Shown here in pieces: positions 10,214 through 47,418 of a DNA stretch of 64,000 nt; within the stretch, counting starts at the first letter, position 1, and each line of letters starts with the position of its first letter. The notes under the pieces are model-generated. The model was not told where the DNA came from, ran no database searches, and saw only the letters and a program-made list of their open reading frames with translations. The stretch is from Bacteroidia bacterium. GTDB taxonomy: Bacteria; Bacteroidota; Bacteroidia; NS11-12g; UBA9320. The stretch spans positions 768,001 through 832,000 of the forward strand of contig CBDCFW010000006.1 in NCBI GenBank assembly GCA_965216465.1. The letters run 5' to 3'. A program made the translations under genes and the position numbers.

Positions 10214-10467
10214 TATGCTAATTCTAAAACGGTTATATCGTAGCTCTCCATTACTGCATTTACAAGAACTTTTTTACATGCTTCGTCTGCAATTGATTTT
10301 GCATCATCTGCAGAATCTGCGGTTACGTGCATGATAATTTTCTTTCCAATTTTAACATCTTCAACTTGGTTAAGACCAATTTTGTTTAAACCTTGGTGAA
10401 CCGCTTTTCCTTGTGGATCCAAAAGACCTTTGTGCGGCATGATGTTTACTGATACTTCAAAGTTCAT
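10213..10467 (-). CDS. purS: Phosphoribosylformylglycinamidine synthase subunit PurS
   Basis: [14 protein letters not shown], 84 aa. Confidence 0.93.
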
Positions 10468-41740: not shown

Positions 41741-42424
41741 TCAAAACATTGACCCAACATCAAGACCTAGGTAAACAAAAGTCAACGCAACAGTATCATA
41801 GACTCCGTGAGCTAAAATACTAGAATAAAGGATTTTTCGAAACATCAGGTAGATCGTTCCAAATCCAAATGCAATAATCATAGCCAGAATCATTCCTGTT
41901 GGACCTTGATAGTAATGCCCAACTCCGCTAAATAGGCTAGTTACAATCAAAGAGATTCCCCAATGAATATTTTGAGACTCCTCATCCTTGACCATCAATT
42001 TGACAATTGAATTCATAATATATCCTCTAAACAATAGTTCTTCAAAAAGTGCCCCAAAAAGCCAAGCAATTACGATGCTGATTGCAAATAGCTTAAAATT
42101 ACCTTCCAATACGTCAAATTCATCAAGATTTGGCTCCATTCCAACAAAATCAACAATGATCTCCTTCAAATAGTATGAAATCAAGAGCAATAGAATTGTA
42201 AATGGCACTACTGAAAAAATCAATGAATATGGATTTTTCGGCAAGACTAAGCCAACTCCCTTCCAATCATCATTAGTCCACGACAAACTTATCCAAGCTA
42301 ATAATGTACTAAGCGTCAGACCTAACAATAAAAAATACCCTGCATTCAGTGTTAATACAGAAGGTAGCAATACCGCGATAATGTGCAGAACCCTTCTTTT
42401 AATTATGCGTTTAGGCTGAATCAA
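41741..42424 (-). CDS. CPBP (CAAX/Abi) family intramembrane glutamic endopeptidase
   Basis: EELLFRG, F...H.YQG, AHGVYD. Confidence 0.88.
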   Translation of the reverse strand: MIQPKRIIKRRVLHIIAVLLPSVLTLNAGYFLLLGLTLSTLLAWISLSWTNDDWKGVGLVLPKNPYSLIFSVVPFTILLLLISYYLKEIIVDFVGMEPNLDEFDVLEGNFKLFAISIVIAWLFGALFEELLFRGYIMNSIVKLMVKDEESQNIHWGISLIVTSLFSGVGHYYQGPTGMILAMIIAFGFGTIYLMFRKILYSSILAHGVYDTVALTFVYLGLDVGSMF

Positions 42425-42813
42425 TTTACAATCTTACTCCCCAAGAAAGACAACGGAAGATACAGTATAATTGAGACCAAATTGAACCAAAGTGGGTGTG
42501 GGATTATTAGCATATTGGCGATGTTAGCCAGCATCAAGATGGTCCCGGTAGTAAGGGCGACTCTTTGCCAATTTGTTTTAGTAATGACTCCAGACACCAA
42601 TCCTCCAACAAATGCAGAAACTGCGAATACAATTAGCATGCTGAGCAATGCTAGAATTGGCAAACTGTCAATGAACATTTTCAATTCATCCTTCGCCTTG
42701 TAATCTAAATCTGCAGGCACAGGGAAAACTGATGCATTAATCAAATCACCTAGTCCGACGATTAACCAACCAACGAGTACGCCAACAATTACACTTAAAA
42801 TCCTATTTTTCAT
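42421..42813 (-). CDS. Hypothetical 4-TM membrane protein (start placed at MKNRILS)
   Basis: Four hydrophobic segments, PHPLWF motif, overlaps both neighbours. Confidence 0.7.
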   Translation of the reverse strand: MKNRILSVIVGVLVGWLIVGLGDLINASVFPVPADLDYKAKDELKMFIDSLPILALLSMLIVFAVSAFVGGLVSGVITKTNWQRVALTTGTILMLANIANMLIIPHPLWFNLVSIILYLPLSFLGSKIVN

Positions 42814-43255
42814 TGGGCTTAAAATGTTGATGAACAAATCGTTTCCAACCTTTTTTATTCTTGGACTCTACCGCCCAATGAAAGCCCAGTTCATCATCTG
42901 GCCAAAACGCTTGTCTGGCTAATCCAGCCGGCATTTCAGCTTCGAATCCAAAAGCATTTGGATGAATGTCGCTTACGTCAGCAAGGACACCTGTTGAATT
43001 CTTACCGTCAGAGGTAAATGACCAAAAACAAATTCTTTTACGGTTGTCCATTCCTATAATGGTATGATCGGTATACAGCTTATCTCCAAGATGCCATGTG
43101 ACATCCTGAATCAGATATTTATTGTCAAGGTCCAAACGGATTTCTCTGATGCACTGAGGGTTTGTCCGATCCTTGCTCCCAGGATTGCATACCCAATTTC
43201 CCAAAATAGGGTTAAAAAGTCCTAGCTTTCCTCTACCCTTTTTCCAGTTATTCAT
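42803..43255 (-). CDS. Hypothetical beta-rich protein
   Basis: 150-aa ORF; LGNW near N-terminus, FWSFTSDG; first gene after the 43305 palindrome. Confidence 0.7.
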   Translation of the reverse strand: MNNWKKGRGKLGLFNPILGNWVCNPGSKDRTNPQCIREIRLDLDNKYLIQDVTWHLGDKLYTDHTIIGMDNRKRICFWSFTSDGKNSTGVLADVSDIHPNAFGFEAEMPAGLARQAFWPDDELGFHWAVESKNKKGWKRFVHQHFKPNEK

Positions 43256-43304
43256 ACTACAATGATTTCTTTATACAATTCTACAGAATGAACGCTATTT
43301 GATT

Positions 43305-43320
43305 GTTGGTATATACCAAC
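43305..43320. promoter_or_regulatory. Perfect 16-bp palindrome, putative Crp/Fnr operator
   Basis: GTTGGTATATACCAAC abuts the stop codon of Crp/Fnr 43321-43899. Confidence 0.7.
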
Positions 43321-43899
43321 TTACCAGAATCGGTGGCTGTCTTGCGCACATTTGTTGTACAACTTGCTAAAATTAGTTGGATCAACATTGATGTAAGACG
43401 CCAGATATTTATGCGGCACTCTACTAAATAACTCCGGCCTCGACTTAATAAGTTGATCAAACCGCTCTTGGATAGTTAATACATGTTGATTCAAGAGCCT
43501 TTTTATTGTTGCCGACAGTACAGTCTCTAGTATTTTTCTATATGCTCGTTCTATGTCATGAGAAGCATCAAAAAGTTCATTTAGATCCTTGAAACTAATC
43601 ATTTCAATCTCAGTATTCTCAATGCAAATTATACTGAACATTGATTCCGTCTGATGGGCAAAAGAGTCTATGTCCACACACAAACGATTTAGATAGGCAA
43701 AATCAACAATTTCCCTAGCACCATCATTGTCTGAGAACATCATCACTGTACCTTTTTTGACCATTATTAGATTTAGTTGCACTTCCCCGTCGAGTAGCAC
43801 ATAGTCCCCTTTCTTAAATGACTCATTGACCAATTTTGCTTTAAACATAGCTCGGTCATCTGGCGAGATACTGGCATATAGAGCAAATAAATCAATCAT
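43321..43899 (-). CDS. Crp/Fnr family transcriptional regulator
   Basis: cNMP-binding-like N-domain (KKGDYVL..G), C-terminal HTH VPHKYLASYINVDPTNFSKL. Confidence 0.88.
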   Translation of the reverse strand: MIDLFALYASISPDDRAMFKAKLVNESFKKGDYVLLDGEVQLNLIMVKKGTVMMFSDNDGAREIVDFAYLNRLCVDIDSFAHQTESMFSIICIENTEIEMISFKDLNELFDASHDIERAYRKILETVLSATIKRLLNQHVLTIQERFDQLIKSRPELFSRVPHKYLASYINVDPTNFSKLYNKCAQDSHRFW

Positions 43900-44572
43900 C
43901 TTTCCTAGAAAGCAACTGGGTTATACTCGCTAAATGAGAAAACAAAACCAGAGGTACTACTACAGTAGGGAGCCAAACAAATGGAAAATACGTGACACCT
44001 ATGTTAGGTTGTTCATGTGATAACGCTTGAAAGCTTGTAGGAGCAGATAGAACCGCTATAGTTAAAATATTAATCAACAGGGCAAGGCAAATAAAATTCC
44101 AAACCAAAAGTCCCTTTCTCCCAACTTTTTTCAGCCTAAACACCAAGAAATAAACTACAGGAGCTGACAAACCTGAAAGGATATCATAATTCCACTTCTC
44201 AAATGTCATGAGATCTGGAATCAAACCTGCAAGAAATATTGCGTACAATATTAATTCTACTGGAATCCGAACAGCGTGCAAAATTGTTAAATATCGAAGG
44301 TCCAGCTGGCTTGCAAATGCTCTTCCTTTTCTGATGCAGATTAAAGCAATTACTAAGATGACTCCAGGACCCAAGAGAAAAACAAAACGAGGAGGAATTG
44401 CAGTCGTATTACTATAAAACCCCATTAAGCCTAAGAATGAGGTTAATATCATCCAAATAACTATACCAATTGCTAATTTTCTATTGCTTTTGGTTGCCTT
44501 AAAGAATAACCAAACTGTTGCCATCGTAGTAACGATAAAACCGATTTGGACGAATGCTGATACCTGGTCCAT
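43892..44572 (-). CDS. Hypothetical multi-TM membrane protein
   Basis: About 7 hydrophobic segments; HAVRIPVE, NYDILSG, PFVWLP. Confidence 0.75.
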   Translation of the reverse strand: MDQVSAFVQIGFIVTTMATVWLFFKATKSNRKLAIGIVIWMILTSFLGLMGFYSNTTAIPPRFVFLLGPGVILVIALICIRKGRAFASQLDLRYLTILHAVRIPVELILYAIFLAGLIPDLMTFEKWNYDILSGLSAPVVYFLVFRLKKVGRKGLLVWNFICLALLINILTIAVLSAPTSFQALSHEQPNIGVTYFPFVWLPTVVVPLVLFSHLASITQLLSRKDD

Positions 44573-44626
44573 ATATTTTTAATTATTTACGATGACAAAA
44601 ATGCCTTGTATATGGCAAAATTGAAC

Positions 44627-44640
44627 TTGACAAATGACAA
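44627..44640. promoter_or_regulatory. Imperfect palindrome, putative Crp/Fnr operator
   Basis: TTGACAAATGACAA (TTGwCA-nn-TGwCAA), 9 nt past the stop of Crp/Fnr 44650-45219. Confidence 0.6.
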
Positions 44641-44649
44641 TTAATAAAG

Positions 44650-45219
44650 TCAAACAATACTTCTTCTAATTCTGCTCAATGAACTGTCAGTTATTCCCAA
44701 GAAACTGGCAATGTGCTTTAGTGGAGTCGATTTAATGACTTCCGCCTGGGTGTCCAACAATCTTTGATACCGTTCGAGTGCTGTTTGTGTAATCATGGAA
44801 TAAATCCTCTTTTTAGATCGAATAAACTCTTTGACCAAAATGGCGCGTCCAAAATCTCGAAAGGCCGGTTTGTCATGAAACAAGGTATTGAGCTCATGAT
44901 ACGAAATCCGAAACCCTAAACAATCGGTCACAGCTTCAAGATAGATATGAGAAGGTTCACGATTGAAGAAAGAGGTGATTTCAAACGCAATGTTGTTAGA
45001 TGTGAAAAAATCGGTAGTTATTTGATCGCCTTCTAAATCATAGGCGAAGGTTCTTAAAACACCATACTGTAGAAAAATATAGTCATCTGAGACTTGCCCA
45101 GGTGCCAAAAGGAGATCTCCTTTTTTAGGATTAAATGGATGAAATTGGTTTGCGATATAAGCCGCCTCAACCGGTAGTATATCAACAGTATTCAAAATGA
45201 AATCTTTGAGTTTATTCAT
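44650..45219 (-). CDS. Crp/Fnr family transcriptional regulator
   Basis: KKGDLLL..G, G.LRTF, C-terminal HTH PLKHIASFLGITDSSLSRIR. Confidence 0.9.
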   Translation of the reverse strand: MNKLKDFILNTVDILPVEAAYIANQFHPFNPKKGDLLLAPGQVSDDYIFLQYGVLRTFAYDLEGDQITTDFFTSNNIAFEITSFFNREPSHIYLEAVTDCLGFRISYHELNTLFHDKPAFRDFGRAILVKEFIRSKKRIYSMITQTALERYQRLLDTQAEVIKSTPLKHIASFLGITDSSLSRIRRSIV

Positions 45220-45281
45220 AGCTATGTATTATAGGATTAAATCTAATTGAGTGGCAGTAAATATACCAAAAAAGGATACAG

Positions 45282-45340
45282 ACCTATTTAAGTATGAACT
45301 CCACCAACTTCAGCAAACTATACAACAGTATCAAAATAGG
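45282..45340 (+). pseudogene. Remnant of the C-terminal HTH of a third Crp/Fnr gene
   Basis: Translates as TYLSMNSTNFSKLYNSIKI, matching SYINVDPTNFSKLYNK of 43321-43899; in-frame stop upstream at 45258-45260. Confidence 0.7.
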
Positions 45341-45343
45341 ACT

Positions 45344-45357
45344 TTGGTCTAGACCAA
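45344..45357. promoter_or_regulatory. Perfect 14-bp palindrome, putative Crp/Fnr operator
   Basis: TTGGTCTAGACCAA right after the Crp remnant; same arms as 43306-43319. Confidence 0.7.
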
Positions 45358-45468
45358 GTTTTATGTTTTCAAAAACACAGATTTTTGTACTTGAAAAAGT
45401 TGGTATTGATTGTACGTCTTGCAACCAATACTTAACAGGCTTGATGCAATTACTAAGCTTAAAGAAAA

Positions 45469-46368
45469 ATGGAAACAGTAAAAAACCAAAGGTTAGATAG
45501 ATCAGAATATCCATTTGAATCAAACTACTTCACGGTAAATGGTCATCAACTGCACTACATCGATGAAGGAAGAGGGCAGCCCATTTTGTTTGTACATGGC
45601 ACCCCTTCCTGGAGTTTTGAGTATAGGAACCAAATAAAGTCTTTGAGCTCCGAGTATCGCTGTATTGCCATGGACCACATAGGATTCGGTTTGTCAGACA
45701 AGCCAAGCACATATGACTATTCAAGCCTGAATCACGCGCAATCATTAGAACGACTGATTCTAGAACTAGATTTATATGATATAATTTTTATTGTCCATGA
45801 CTTTGGTGGCCCAATTGGGATGAGTTTTGCCCTAAATTATCCGGATAGAATTGATAAGATTGTGGTCCTAAATTCTTGGCTTTGGAGCAGCGAACAAGAG
45901 CCAGAATTCAAAAAGTTAAGCAAAGTGATCCGCAGCCCATTGCTTCCATTTCTATACCGTAATTTCAATCTATCAGCAAAATATTTGTTGCCACGGTCTT
46001 TTGGAAAGAAAAAATTGCCAAGGAGCCTACTCAAGCAATACACACAGCCATTTCAAAATAGTAAACAAAGGAATGGGACTGTGGGATTTGCACAGTCCTT
46101 ACTAAATAATCAAGCTTGGTTTGAGGAATTGTGGATTAAGAAGAAATCACTAAAAGAAGTTCCGTTCTTATTCATTTGGGGAATGAATGATCAGTTTGTT
46201 CCAGGAAAGTTTTTGGACAAGTTTATGTCTGGATTTGACAAGGTCCAAGCTGTCAAAATTGAGTCATGTGGACACTTCCCACAGGAAGAGGAATCGGAGA
46301 TCGTTACTAAGTCCATATTTGACTTCATAAAAACGGATAGCAATGAAAATAACCCTCAGAAAAGCTAA
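45469..46368 (+). CDS. Alpha/beta hydrolase, haloalkane dehalogenase/OleB-like
   Basis: HYIDEG.G, HGTPSWSF, DHIGFGLSDKP, HDFGG (Asp nucleophile), GHFPQEE. Confidence 0.85.
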   Translation: METVKNQRLDRSEYPFESNYFTVNGHQLHYIDEGRGQPILFVHGTPSWSFEYRNQIKSLSSEYRCIAMDHIGFGLSDKPSTYDYSSLNHAQSLERLILELDLYDIIFIVHDFGGPIGMSFALNYPDRIDKIVVLNSWLWSSEQEPEFKKLSKVIRSPLLPFLYRNFNLSAKYLLPRSFGKKKLPRSLLKQYTQPFQNSKQRNGTVGFAQSLLNNQAWFEELWIKKKSLKEVPFLFIWGMNDQFVPGKFLDKFMSGFDKVQAVKIESCGHFPQEEESEIVTKSIFDFIKTDSNENNPQKS

Positions 46369-46858
46369 CTTATCAGATTTGCGACTGTTGCAATATTGGG
46401 ATCAACAGCAACATGTAATTGACTCTAATCCAGGTGGTGGATGGGACTGGGAAACCGAACTAAATCAAAATTGCGACTGGTGTATCCCATACATTTCAGA
46501 AATGGATGGTCAGGCAATTGGATTTCTCCAAATTGTTGATCCAGCAGGGGACCCCAGCAACTATTGGGGTATTCGTTCCATCGGGTACAGAGCAATAGAC
46601 ATCTGGATTGGGGAAGCCAACAATCTGAATATAGGCATTGGAACGATAATGATGAACATAGCCATTGCAAGATGTTTTGAAGACAAAAAAGTTACTTCAA
46701 TTTTGGTCGACCCCCTTTTTACTAATACCAAAGCGCAAAGATTTTACCAACGTCTTGGGTTTAAACACATTGAAACCAAAGTGTTAGGTGAAGATAAAAG
46801 TTGTGTTTATCGATTGGACAGACAGGACTGGAATGAACGCAGTGAAGAGATCCTATGA
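46343..46858 (+). CDS. GNAT acetyltransferase (AAC(6')-like subfamily)
   Basis: IGFLQ, AIDIWIGE...G.G, VDP...N..A.RFY.RLGF. Confidence 0.8.
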   Translation: MKITLRKANLSDLRLLQYWDQQQHVIDSNPGGGWDWETELNQNCDWCIPYISEMDGQAIGFLQIVDPAGDPSNYWGIRSIGYRAIDIWIGEANNLNIGIGTIMMNIAIARCFEDKKVTSILVDPLFTNTKAQRFYQRLGFKHIETKVLGEDKSCVYRLDRQDWNERSEEIL

Positions 46859-47418
46859 CAGATCAAGTTTTCATAGAAGATCGAATTAAAAGGGGCTATC
46901 AAGCACTGGACAAGGTCAATCATGAACTGTCTAAATTGAATAGAAATCAGCTGAACTGGAAACCTAACACTGAGACATGGAGTATTGCTGAGTGTCTGAA
47001 TCATCTAATCATTGCAGATGGCTTATATTTTGAGGACTTTTCTGCTATTGGTCGTAATGAATATGAAATGAGTTTATGGGAACTGCACAGTCCATTTACT
47101 CATCTGTTTGGCAAAACATTAATAAATCAGATGAAAGAGAAGGTAACAATACCATTAAAAACTCACAAAATCCTTAAACCACCTTTAACCAATTATGAAA
47201 CAAAAATTGTAGAAAATTACACATCAAGCCTAAGACATTTAATTAATCTTGTCTCGGTCTGTAATCATATTGATTTAGGTAAAGTTATAATTAGCTCTCC
47301 AACAATCAAGTGGATAACATACAGTTTTAGGGACGCTTTGGAGTTCCTATTTGAACATGAACACAGACATATAAATCAAGCCATCCGACTAAAGTCTGAA
47401 GAAGGTTTTCCTACATAA
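46855..47418 (+). CDS. DinB family protein
   Basis: LNWKP..ETWSIAECLNHL, HEHRHINQA. Confidence 0.85.
   Translation: MTDQVFIEDRIKRGYQALDKVNHELSKLNRNQLNWKPNTETWSIAECLNHLIIADGLYFEDFSAIGRNEYEMSLWELHSPFTHLFGKTLINQMKEKVTIPLKTHKILKPPLTNYETKIVENYTSSLRHLINLVSVCNHIDLGKVIISSPTIKWITYSFRDALEFLFEHEHRHINQAIRLKSEEGFPT

Follow-up and report, generated by a model that had tools for sequence, protein, structure and literature searches.

When a gene for a regulator of the Crp/Fnr superfamily is followed, almost at its stop codon, by a short palindrome and then by another gene on the same strand, is the palindrome an operator through which the regulator controls its neighbour? The question is raised by a stretch of 64,000 nucleotides from a Bacteroidia bacterium of the UBA9320 lineage (assembly GCA_965216465.1, contig CBDCFW010000006.1, positions 768,001 to 832,000), called here the window, in which two such regulator genes, crp1 and crp2, and the remnant of a third are each followed by a dyad of this type. 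An earlier note on the window had read these as repeated modules—regulator, own palindrome, a gap of 22 or 23 nucleotides (nt), a promoter -7 box, target gene—and had proposed that the recognition helix of each regulator predicts its operator. We consider it probable that the modules exemplify an architecture found throughout Bacteroidota, in which the regulator would act as a class II activator from a cognate operator placed at the end of its own gene, and that the genes of the window would form a cascade of such steps; binding, activation, cascade and ligand are what we infer here from sequence.

Results

Three modules with a common layout

The dyads and -7-like boxes are where the earlier note had placed them, with gaps of 22, 23 and 22 nt for dyads 1, 2 and 3. 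On the minus strand the gene order is crp2, a gene for a 226-amino-acid (aa) membrane protein, crp1, and genes for a 150-aa protein, a 138-aa membrane protein and a CPBP/Rce1-like protease. Recognised by its open reading frame (ORF) and a Pfam cNMP_binding match, crp2 (44650..45219, minus strand; stop codon at 44650-44652) encodes a 189-aa Crp/Fnr-superfamily regulator with the helix DSSLSRIRR. Dyad 2, TTGACAAATGACAA (44627..44640), lies 9 nt past this stop, and 23 nt past the dyad is the -7-like box CATTTTTG (44596..44603, minus strand), which has the same start as the family consensus tAnnTTTG described below; its TTTG starts 27 nt past the dyad. The cargo, as we term the genes behind a module, is here the 226-aa membrane protein (43892..44572, minus strand), which appears in the ORF list and has no Pfam family. 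The end of its gene overlaps by 8 nt the start of crp1 (43321..43899, minus strand; stop codon at 43321-43323), which encodes a 192-aa regulator of the same superfamily with the helix PTNFSKLYNK within residues 174-185. Dyad 1, TTGGTATATACCAA (43306..43319), is 1 nt from the crp1 stop, and 22 nt past it is a weak -7-like box, TAGAATTG (43276..43283, minus strand), without the full TTTG; the cargo of crp1 occupies 41741..43255, on the same strand.

The third module is on the plus strand. The last 28 or so codons of a TNFSKLY-type regulator (about 45255..45338) are followed by the orphan dyad 3, TTGGTCTAGACCAA (45344..45357), then 22 nt on by the box GATTTTTG (45380..45387), whose TTTG starts 26 nt past the dyad, and by genes for an alpha/beta hydrolase, a GNAT protein and a DinB_2 protein (45469..47418), the first of which (45469-46368) diverges from crp2. 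All three dyads had been described as 14-bp palindromes. For dyads 1 and 3 this is exact, these being the only two perfect (7/7) palindromes among the 49 TTG-N8-CAA 14-mers of the window, while dyad 2 is symmetric in 5 of 7 pairs and is better read, on the minus strand, as TTGTC-ATTT-GTCAA. The sequencing runs that match 42400-46400 of the window are four sets of DNA-type contigs from one study, with no RNA run among them.

Dyads are enriched behind Crp-like genes

A discovery set of 80 loci from species genomes, 80 from metagenomes and the genome of the window itself yielded 169 usable Crp-like ORFs, mostly from Bacteroidota. The expectation that such palindromes would be enriched downstream of homologous Crp genes was borne out by three measures. 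A perfect TTnnn-N4-nnnAA dyad lies between -15 and +75 of the stop in 48 of the 169, compared with 12 of 450 other ORFs, 1 of 165 upstream regions and 41 of 1690 shuffled sequences. Dyads of the TT-N10-AA type scoring at least 7 are present between -16 and +60 of the stop in 60/169, for 4.0 expected from shuffling and 2/165 in upstream regions. The last measure is model-free, being anchored on TTTG with no assumption of TT/AA ends: a 14-mer with at least 4 of 5 symmetric pairs is found 26 or 27 nt before any TTTG in 98 of the 169 (6.2/169 when shuffled; 21/437 for other ORFs). The genome of the window encodes nine paralogues, and a dyad follows the stop in all six short ones and in two of the three long ones.

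One of these paralogues, C6_442675 (C6:443490-443560, outside the window), has the CRP-like helix R-E-x-x-x-R; 2 nt past its stop is GTGAC-TACA-GTCAC (GTGA-N6-TCAC), followed 22 nt on by TACCTTTG. This is the E. coli CRP half-site set in the same architecture. A different arrangement is seen at locus L232 (G119:C2:294300-302900), where eight Crp-like genes with ET helices stand in tandem on one strand, separated by short gaps; the dyad-plus-TTTG module is present after the stop of none of the eight, and the array may be another way of using the Crp-like family.

Dyads lie at a fixed distance from TTTG

Among 95 sites scoring at least 6.5, TTTG starts at +26 from the dyad in 45 and at +27 in 24 (69/95 together); these offsets equal gaps of 22 and 23 nt to the -7 box, so that the spacing remarked on in the window is the mode for the family. 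From +23 after the dyad end the downstream consensus is tAnnTTTG, and with its conserved flanks, w-T-C / TTGnn-N4-nnCAA / G-a-w, the palindrome spans about 18 bp. In most loci 0-17 nt separate the stop from the dyad, and a same-strand ORF begins no more than 260 nt downstream of 147 of the 169 regulators. At 35 of the 95 sites coding sequence and operator-like site overlap: the dyad begins 4 nt before the end of the stop codon, which is then part of the left half-site (TTGAx or TTAAx), and in such sites (loci L001-L160) the preceding codons, ATT TCT, provide the flank TTTC. Position counts show no TTG immediately past the dyad, where a -33 element would lie.

Class II Crp/Fnr activators work from a site centred near -41.5. 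The centre of the dyads is 36.5 or 37.5 nt before the G of TTTG; given this fixed distance and the location of the sigma-A box TAnnTTTG at -12..-5 in Flavobacterium psychrophilum (PMC9723704), the dyads would be centred at -41.5/-42.5. The table of transcription start sites (TSSs) in that study (supplement 3) gives sequences from -50 to +10. Its mapped ccoI promoter, adjoining a divergent Crp/Fnr-family gene (THC0290_1913/1914), carries ATGAC-AAAT-ATCAT at -48..-35 and TTTG at -8..-5. This dyad is FNR-like and makes ccoI a TSS-anchored example of the same geometry in a canonical member of the family.

Operator sequence covaries with the recognition helix

Each type of helix goes with its own type of dyad. 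Helices of the form [PAH]T[NT]FSK[LM]x are paired with TTGGT-N4-ACCAA, the type of dyad 1, which stands behind TNFSKL-type regulators in about 20 loci; PETFSRLR/IR with TTGAT-N4-[AG]TCAA; PETLSRIR with TTGAC-N4-GTCAA or TTGAT-N4-ATCAA; PESLSRIR with TTAAC-N4-GTCAA; and PQ[AS]LSRIR with TTAAC-N4-GTTCA. The helices D[ST]SLSRIR and PTSLSRIR are paired with TTGyC-N4-GnCAA, a subfamily pattern found at L063, L081, L082, L083, L086 and L088 and matched by dyad 2; PEFFSKMK goes with TTAAT-N4-rTTAA, and RHLSRIR with aGGAC-N4-GTCCn, RH helices being paired with GGAC/AGAC half-sites. Arginine at the position of CRP residue 180 accompanies GTGA half-sites in L197, L198 and L207 as in the paralogue C6_442675.

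Helix positions x1/x2 and half-site positions 3/4 share more mutual information than in any of 1000 permutations, and several cells kept this excess after the set had been thinned to 30 representatives of clusters at 50% identity. The ET helix and the presence of TTGA[TC] on both halves coincide without exception (counts of 24/0/0/65), and each of the two changes state nine times on a tree from which the helix-turn-helix (HTH) columns had been left out. The clade with T[NT]FSK helices and TTGG is sister to that with PETFSRLR and TTGAT, and both adjoin DinB_2 cargo, which has TTGAT with ETFSRLR regulators and TTGGT with T[NT]FSKLx regulators; to judge from these sequences, this looks like a coupled, in-place switch of helix and operator between sister clades. 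TNFSKL regulators retain TTGGT over at least four types of cargo, and the half-site shifts with the helix of the adjacent regulator even among paralogues of a single genome, as in G175. The operator follows the helix, not the cargo.

For replication we used an even sample of 151 Bacteroidota genomes, 80 of which contain the family, in up to 20 copies per genome; 30 loci and all the paralogues of four genomes gave 92 unique regulators. Of these, 35 passed the anchored test, with 4 or more of the 5 pairs symmetric. With the rules fixed on the discovery set and each regulator's own motif sought within -16..+64 of the stop, the motif was present for 15 of 31 ET helices, 2 of 2 T[NT]..K, 1 of 4 [ST]S, 5 of 11 Q, 5 of 12 ES, 4 of 4 RH and 0 of 9 EF: 32 of 73 overall, a sensitivity of about 44%. 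A wrong motif was found in only 1 of 438 off-diagonal cells. The covariation of helix and operator that the earlier note had proposed is therefore kept in an independent set of regulators, in which the specificity of helix for motif, as read from these counts, replicates.

The regulators are short members of the Crp/Fnr superfamily

The product of crp2 matches the Pfam family cNMP_binding (PF00027) with 32.3 bits, over a cutoff of 27.5; all four paralogues of the genome that were tested match PF00027 (best E 7.4e-14), and two of the four match HTH_Crp_2 (PF13545; best E 5.5e-5). An AlphaFold2 model of Crp1, built with 43 homologues (pLDDT 95.2), has beta-roll strands at residues 24-102, a long helix at 114-140, and an HTH made of helices 163-169 and 174-185, the latter being the recognition helix, PTNFSKLYNKCA; no strand follows it. 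Foldseek aligned this model with structures of CRP, GlxR and FNR (TMq 0.83-0.87). Modelled as a homodimer, Crp1 scored 0.84 against 0.50 for the best control, with the interface on the long helix (110-140), at least 97% of contacts in agreement between runs and a partner pLDDT of 89. Among proteins solved as pairs, 20 of 30 come up to the mark used, against 1 of 23 solved as single chains, and a pass may reflect likeness since similar complexes have already been solved; dimerization through the long central helix is thus a prediction of the model. By sequence, the only solved structure in the subfamily is that of a "cyclic nucleotide binding regulatory protein" of Cytophaga hutchinsonii from structural genomics (PDB 3DN7), the match having an E of 2.2e-14 and covering residues 12-183, with 24% identity and an rmsd of 1.6 A; the title of the entry names no function, ligand or DNA site.

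The cysteines of the FNR [4Fe-4S] cluster are N-terminal. The first 30 residues of Crp1 and Crp2 contain no Cys, and Crp1 therefore has no FNR-type cluster. Both proteins belong to the CRP/FNR superfamily, yet neither is CRP or FNR proper. The nearest relatives of Crp2, at L081, L063 and L082, have its helix and dyad type in common with it, and at L063 and L082 the cargo as well: a homologue of the 226-aa membrane protein is encoded behind the crp2-type regulators there.

A decayed regulator and its orphan operon

The earlier note's claim of a remnant upstream of dyad 3 stands, since tblastn aligned about 28 C-terminal codons of the TNFSKLY type, with 73% identity over 22 aa to the regulator of L003 and 52% over 27 aa to those of L002/L006. 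The remnant is interrupted by a stop in frame and no longer ends in the normal stop codon. In other genomes, homologues of the hydrolase encoded downstream form the cargo of ten TNFSKL[YF] regulators (a cluster of 11), and we therefore take the remnant to be the decayed cognate regulator of the operon. The sole intact protein of this genome with a helix fitting the orphan operator is Crp1. Splitting of a single gene into crp1 and the remnant by inversion was considered and rejected: both keep the full TNFSKLYN helix, and an inversion origin is also contradicted by differences at nearly every third codon position. A search with this hydrolase in 40 relatives found it in none of 24 genomes of the same genus and in 1 of 16 from another, neighbouring family, which suggests that the locus is accessory in this genome.

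A second promoter candidate is visible at this site: the minus strand, too, has a TTTG 26 nt from dyad 3, facing crp2 (45318-45357 of the window). It falls within the Ser-Lys-Leu codons of the remnant, and may be a by-product of the old coding sequence or a second promoter that would close a Crp1-Crp2 loop. A further crp1-type dyad, TTGGTTAAGACCAA, is found at 10366-10379 of the window, outside ORFs of at least 150 aa; neither strand has a TTTG at +26/27 from it.

Cargo and extent of the regulons

The cargo of the family consists of small redox, detoxification or membrane genes. Its types include DoxX_2-like, DinB_2, Abhydrolase_1, YceI, DUF4260, pirin, SRPBCC, Flavodoxin_2, FMN_bind_2, SDR, nitroreductase, quinone-reductase-like, P450, SMR and MFS proteins. 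In the window, the Rce1-like protease of the crp1 cargo has a Pfam score of 54 bits; the 150-aa protein is likened to "putative DUF1579" by an atlas score of 0.96, to be taken as a lead rather than a test; and the alpha/beta hydrolase has a haloalkane-dehalogenase-like match below cutoff. Within the genome, intergenic dyads with correct TTTG spacing are found only beside regulators, one or two sites to each, and the regulons would therefore be local. The idea that the modules are portable cassettes has to be narrowed in that, judged by the loci compared, the cassettes are mostly conserved regulator-cargo pairs and not freely shuffled parts.

A proposed mechanism and its alternatives

The mechanism that we favour, and regard as probable, can be set out as follows. 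A dimeric one-component regulator of about 190 aa, of the Crp/Fnr superfamily, would have its gene immediately before that of its target, in the same orientation. Its operator would be the 5-N4-5 dyad within a palindrome of about 18 bp, abutting or containing the regulator's stop codon and placed 22-23 nt before the TAnnTTTG box of the target, with its centre at about -41.5/-42.5. From there the dimer, with its ligand bound, would make contact with RNA polymerase or recruit it, in class II style, at a promoter without a -33 element. The first residues of the recognition helix (CRP positions 180-182 and 185) would set the bases of the half-site, and specificity set in this way would let up to about 20 paralogues function in parallel in one genome. 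In the window, Crp2 (DSSLSRIR; TTGTC-N4-GTCAA) would drive the membrane-protein gene and, via the 8-nt overlap, crp1; Crp1 (TNFSKLY) would drive the DUF1579-like and CPBP genes through dyad 1, and probably also acts in trans on the hydrolase-GNAT-DinB operon through the surviving dyad 3.

Several results weigh against this mechanism. The strict anchored test (at least 4 of 5 pairs) was failed by 71 of 169 regulators of the discovery set and by 57 of 92 in the replication set: some of those that failed have sites farther away or variant boxes, and others, such as the array of eight tandem genes, seem to be without any site. The modules of the window are themselves imperfect, for that of crp1 is rejected by the strict TTTG filter, its box TAGAATTG having no full TTTG, and the dyad of crp2 falls short of full symmetry. 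Crp1 scores 26.4 bits with cNMP_binding, slightly under the cutoff, and neither Crp1 (28.1 bits) nor Crp2 (17.8 bits) reaches the cutoff of 266 of the NCBIfam CRP equivalog PRK11753. As for covariation, only four independent pairs are available on well-supported branches, all in the expected direction (sign test, p 0.125); the association of T[NT]FSK with TTGG is one evolutionary event, confined to a single clade; and the rule linking EF to TTAAy did not replicate, none of the nine EF regulators of the second set having the motif.

There is, in addition, nothing to stop transcription from reading through from regulator to cargo. Since no terminator separates the two, read-through must cross the dyad 0-17 nt past the stop, and the regulators could, while still binding the dyads as cognate operators, be repressors, roadblocks or dual regulators that gate read-through or occlude the promoter. 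We think this unlikely, though it is the most serious of the alternatives: the fixed centre, which would lie at -41.5/-42.5, is the position of a class II activator, one would expect the site of a repressor to cover part of the -7 box or the transcription start, and no TTG is visible where a -33 element would lie. It seems very improbable that the palindromes are RNA hairpins which terminate or stabilise the regulator mRNA at its 3' end, and not protein sites. The two perfect palindromes do fold, weakly (-7.9 and -9.0 kcal/mol, z about -2.2 to -2.6), and the paralogue C6_1175135 has an 8-bp stem followed by TTTT, but the crp2 site has no RNA fold (0 kcal/mol), and in the large QALSRIR class the half-sites (TTAAC...GTTCA) are asymmetric and unable to pair; it is specific bases that are conserved rather than pairing, and they covary with the helix at a fixed distance from TTTG. 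Just as improbable is a third alternative, in which some other factor, for example a global regulator, binds the sites, or AT-rich intergenic DNA has given rise to the palindromes by chance. TTG-N8-CAA is frequent, as its 49 copies in the window attest, and exact dyads of these types are found within coding regions of the genome too; against this stand an enrichment of at least 10-fold over three kinds of control and the change of half-site with the helix of the adjacent regulator, even within one genome.

Discussion

Class II activation from a cognate operator, which we hold to be the probable function of these modules, can be compared with that of known members of the superfamily. E. coli FNR and CRP, as class II activators, resemble the proteins described here in fold, in the predicted dimer through the long C-helix, in the 5-N4-5 dyad and in the inferred centre at -41.5/-42.5, and the members with ET helices carry the FNR box itself, quoted as TTGAT-N4-ATCAA in PMC1274295. 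They differ in that our proteins have about 190 aa and end 7-17 residues past the recognition helix, with no strand after it in the Crp1 model, and in that regulons here are local, promoters are of the Bacteroidota -7/-33 type, and the operator is at the regulator's own stop.

Closer in organisation are HcpR, HcpR2, DNR, NnrR and NssR, analysed by Rodionov et al. in 2005 (PMC1274295). As far as the accessible text of that paper goes, the genes of these local regulators likewise adjoin single targets, and the bases of the half-site correlate with the residues at CRP/FNR positions 180/181: TTGAC goes with E181 preceded by S or P, TTAAC with Q181 (NssR) and GTGA with R180. We recovered these links, E with TTGAy, Q with TTAAC and R180 with GTGA, which were published for HcpR, DNR and NssR, so the helix-operator code of the earlier note holds as an extension of the published 180/181 rule and not as a new principle. 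The pairings of TTGGT with T-N...K, TTGyC with [ST]S, GGAC/AGAC with RH and TTCGC with QH are not found in that text, its Figure 3 lying outside the comparison. In contrast to those regulators, the present ones form a different family with many more paralogues, up to 20 per genome, and have a constant geometry: regulator and target share a strand, the regulator comes first, and 0-17 nt separate its stop from the operator.

Among Bacteroidota, BT4338 of Bacteroides thetaiotaomicron (Crp/MalR; Ravcheev et al. 2013, PMC3878776) is likewise a Crp-family regulator with a predicted palindromic motif. It is described there as global, with up to 30 genes per genome, and its motif as a 22-bp palindrome, TATGTT-N-TA-N-AACATA, with a site upstream of its own gene, whereas the proteins described here are local, with 5-N4-5 dyads downstream of their own genes. 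No earlier description of the architecture was found in the full-text literature as far as it was accessible (including PMC3590769, PMC8510549, PMC3878776 and PMC1274295), most subscription journals and the curated regulon databases being beyond its scope. In terms of sequence, then, the architecture is a well-supported new variant of the CRP/FNR theme, and the helix-to-base rule, already published, is extended here.

A bolder reading, to which we give slightly less than an even chance, is that Bacteroidota contain dozens of mutually orthogonal, self-contained one-gene switches, built on truncated activators with the operator in or beside their own stop codon, at the class II position of the unusual -7/-33 promoters of the phylum. 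These switches would have acquired new specificities by changing helix and operator in place, with the cargo unchanged; the window would hold a cascade from Crp2 to Crp1 and on to two operons, one of which would have been taken over once its own regulator had decayed. If that is true, three or four helix residues would suffice to predict which operator a regulator not yet characterised uses. If binding and inducers are confirmed, the pairs could be used as orthogonal regulated promoters in Bacteroides and Flavobacterium, which we offer as a proposal, and regulons could be annotated automatically in genomes and metagenomes.

To our knowledge, few cases of transcription activation at Bacteroidota sigma-A promoters have been described. 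The family would provide a model of such activation that is readable from sequence, with a fixed position and about ten operator specificities; and because its cargo consists of small redox, detoxification and membrane genes, it may be a main route for the sensing of small molecules in Bacteroidota.

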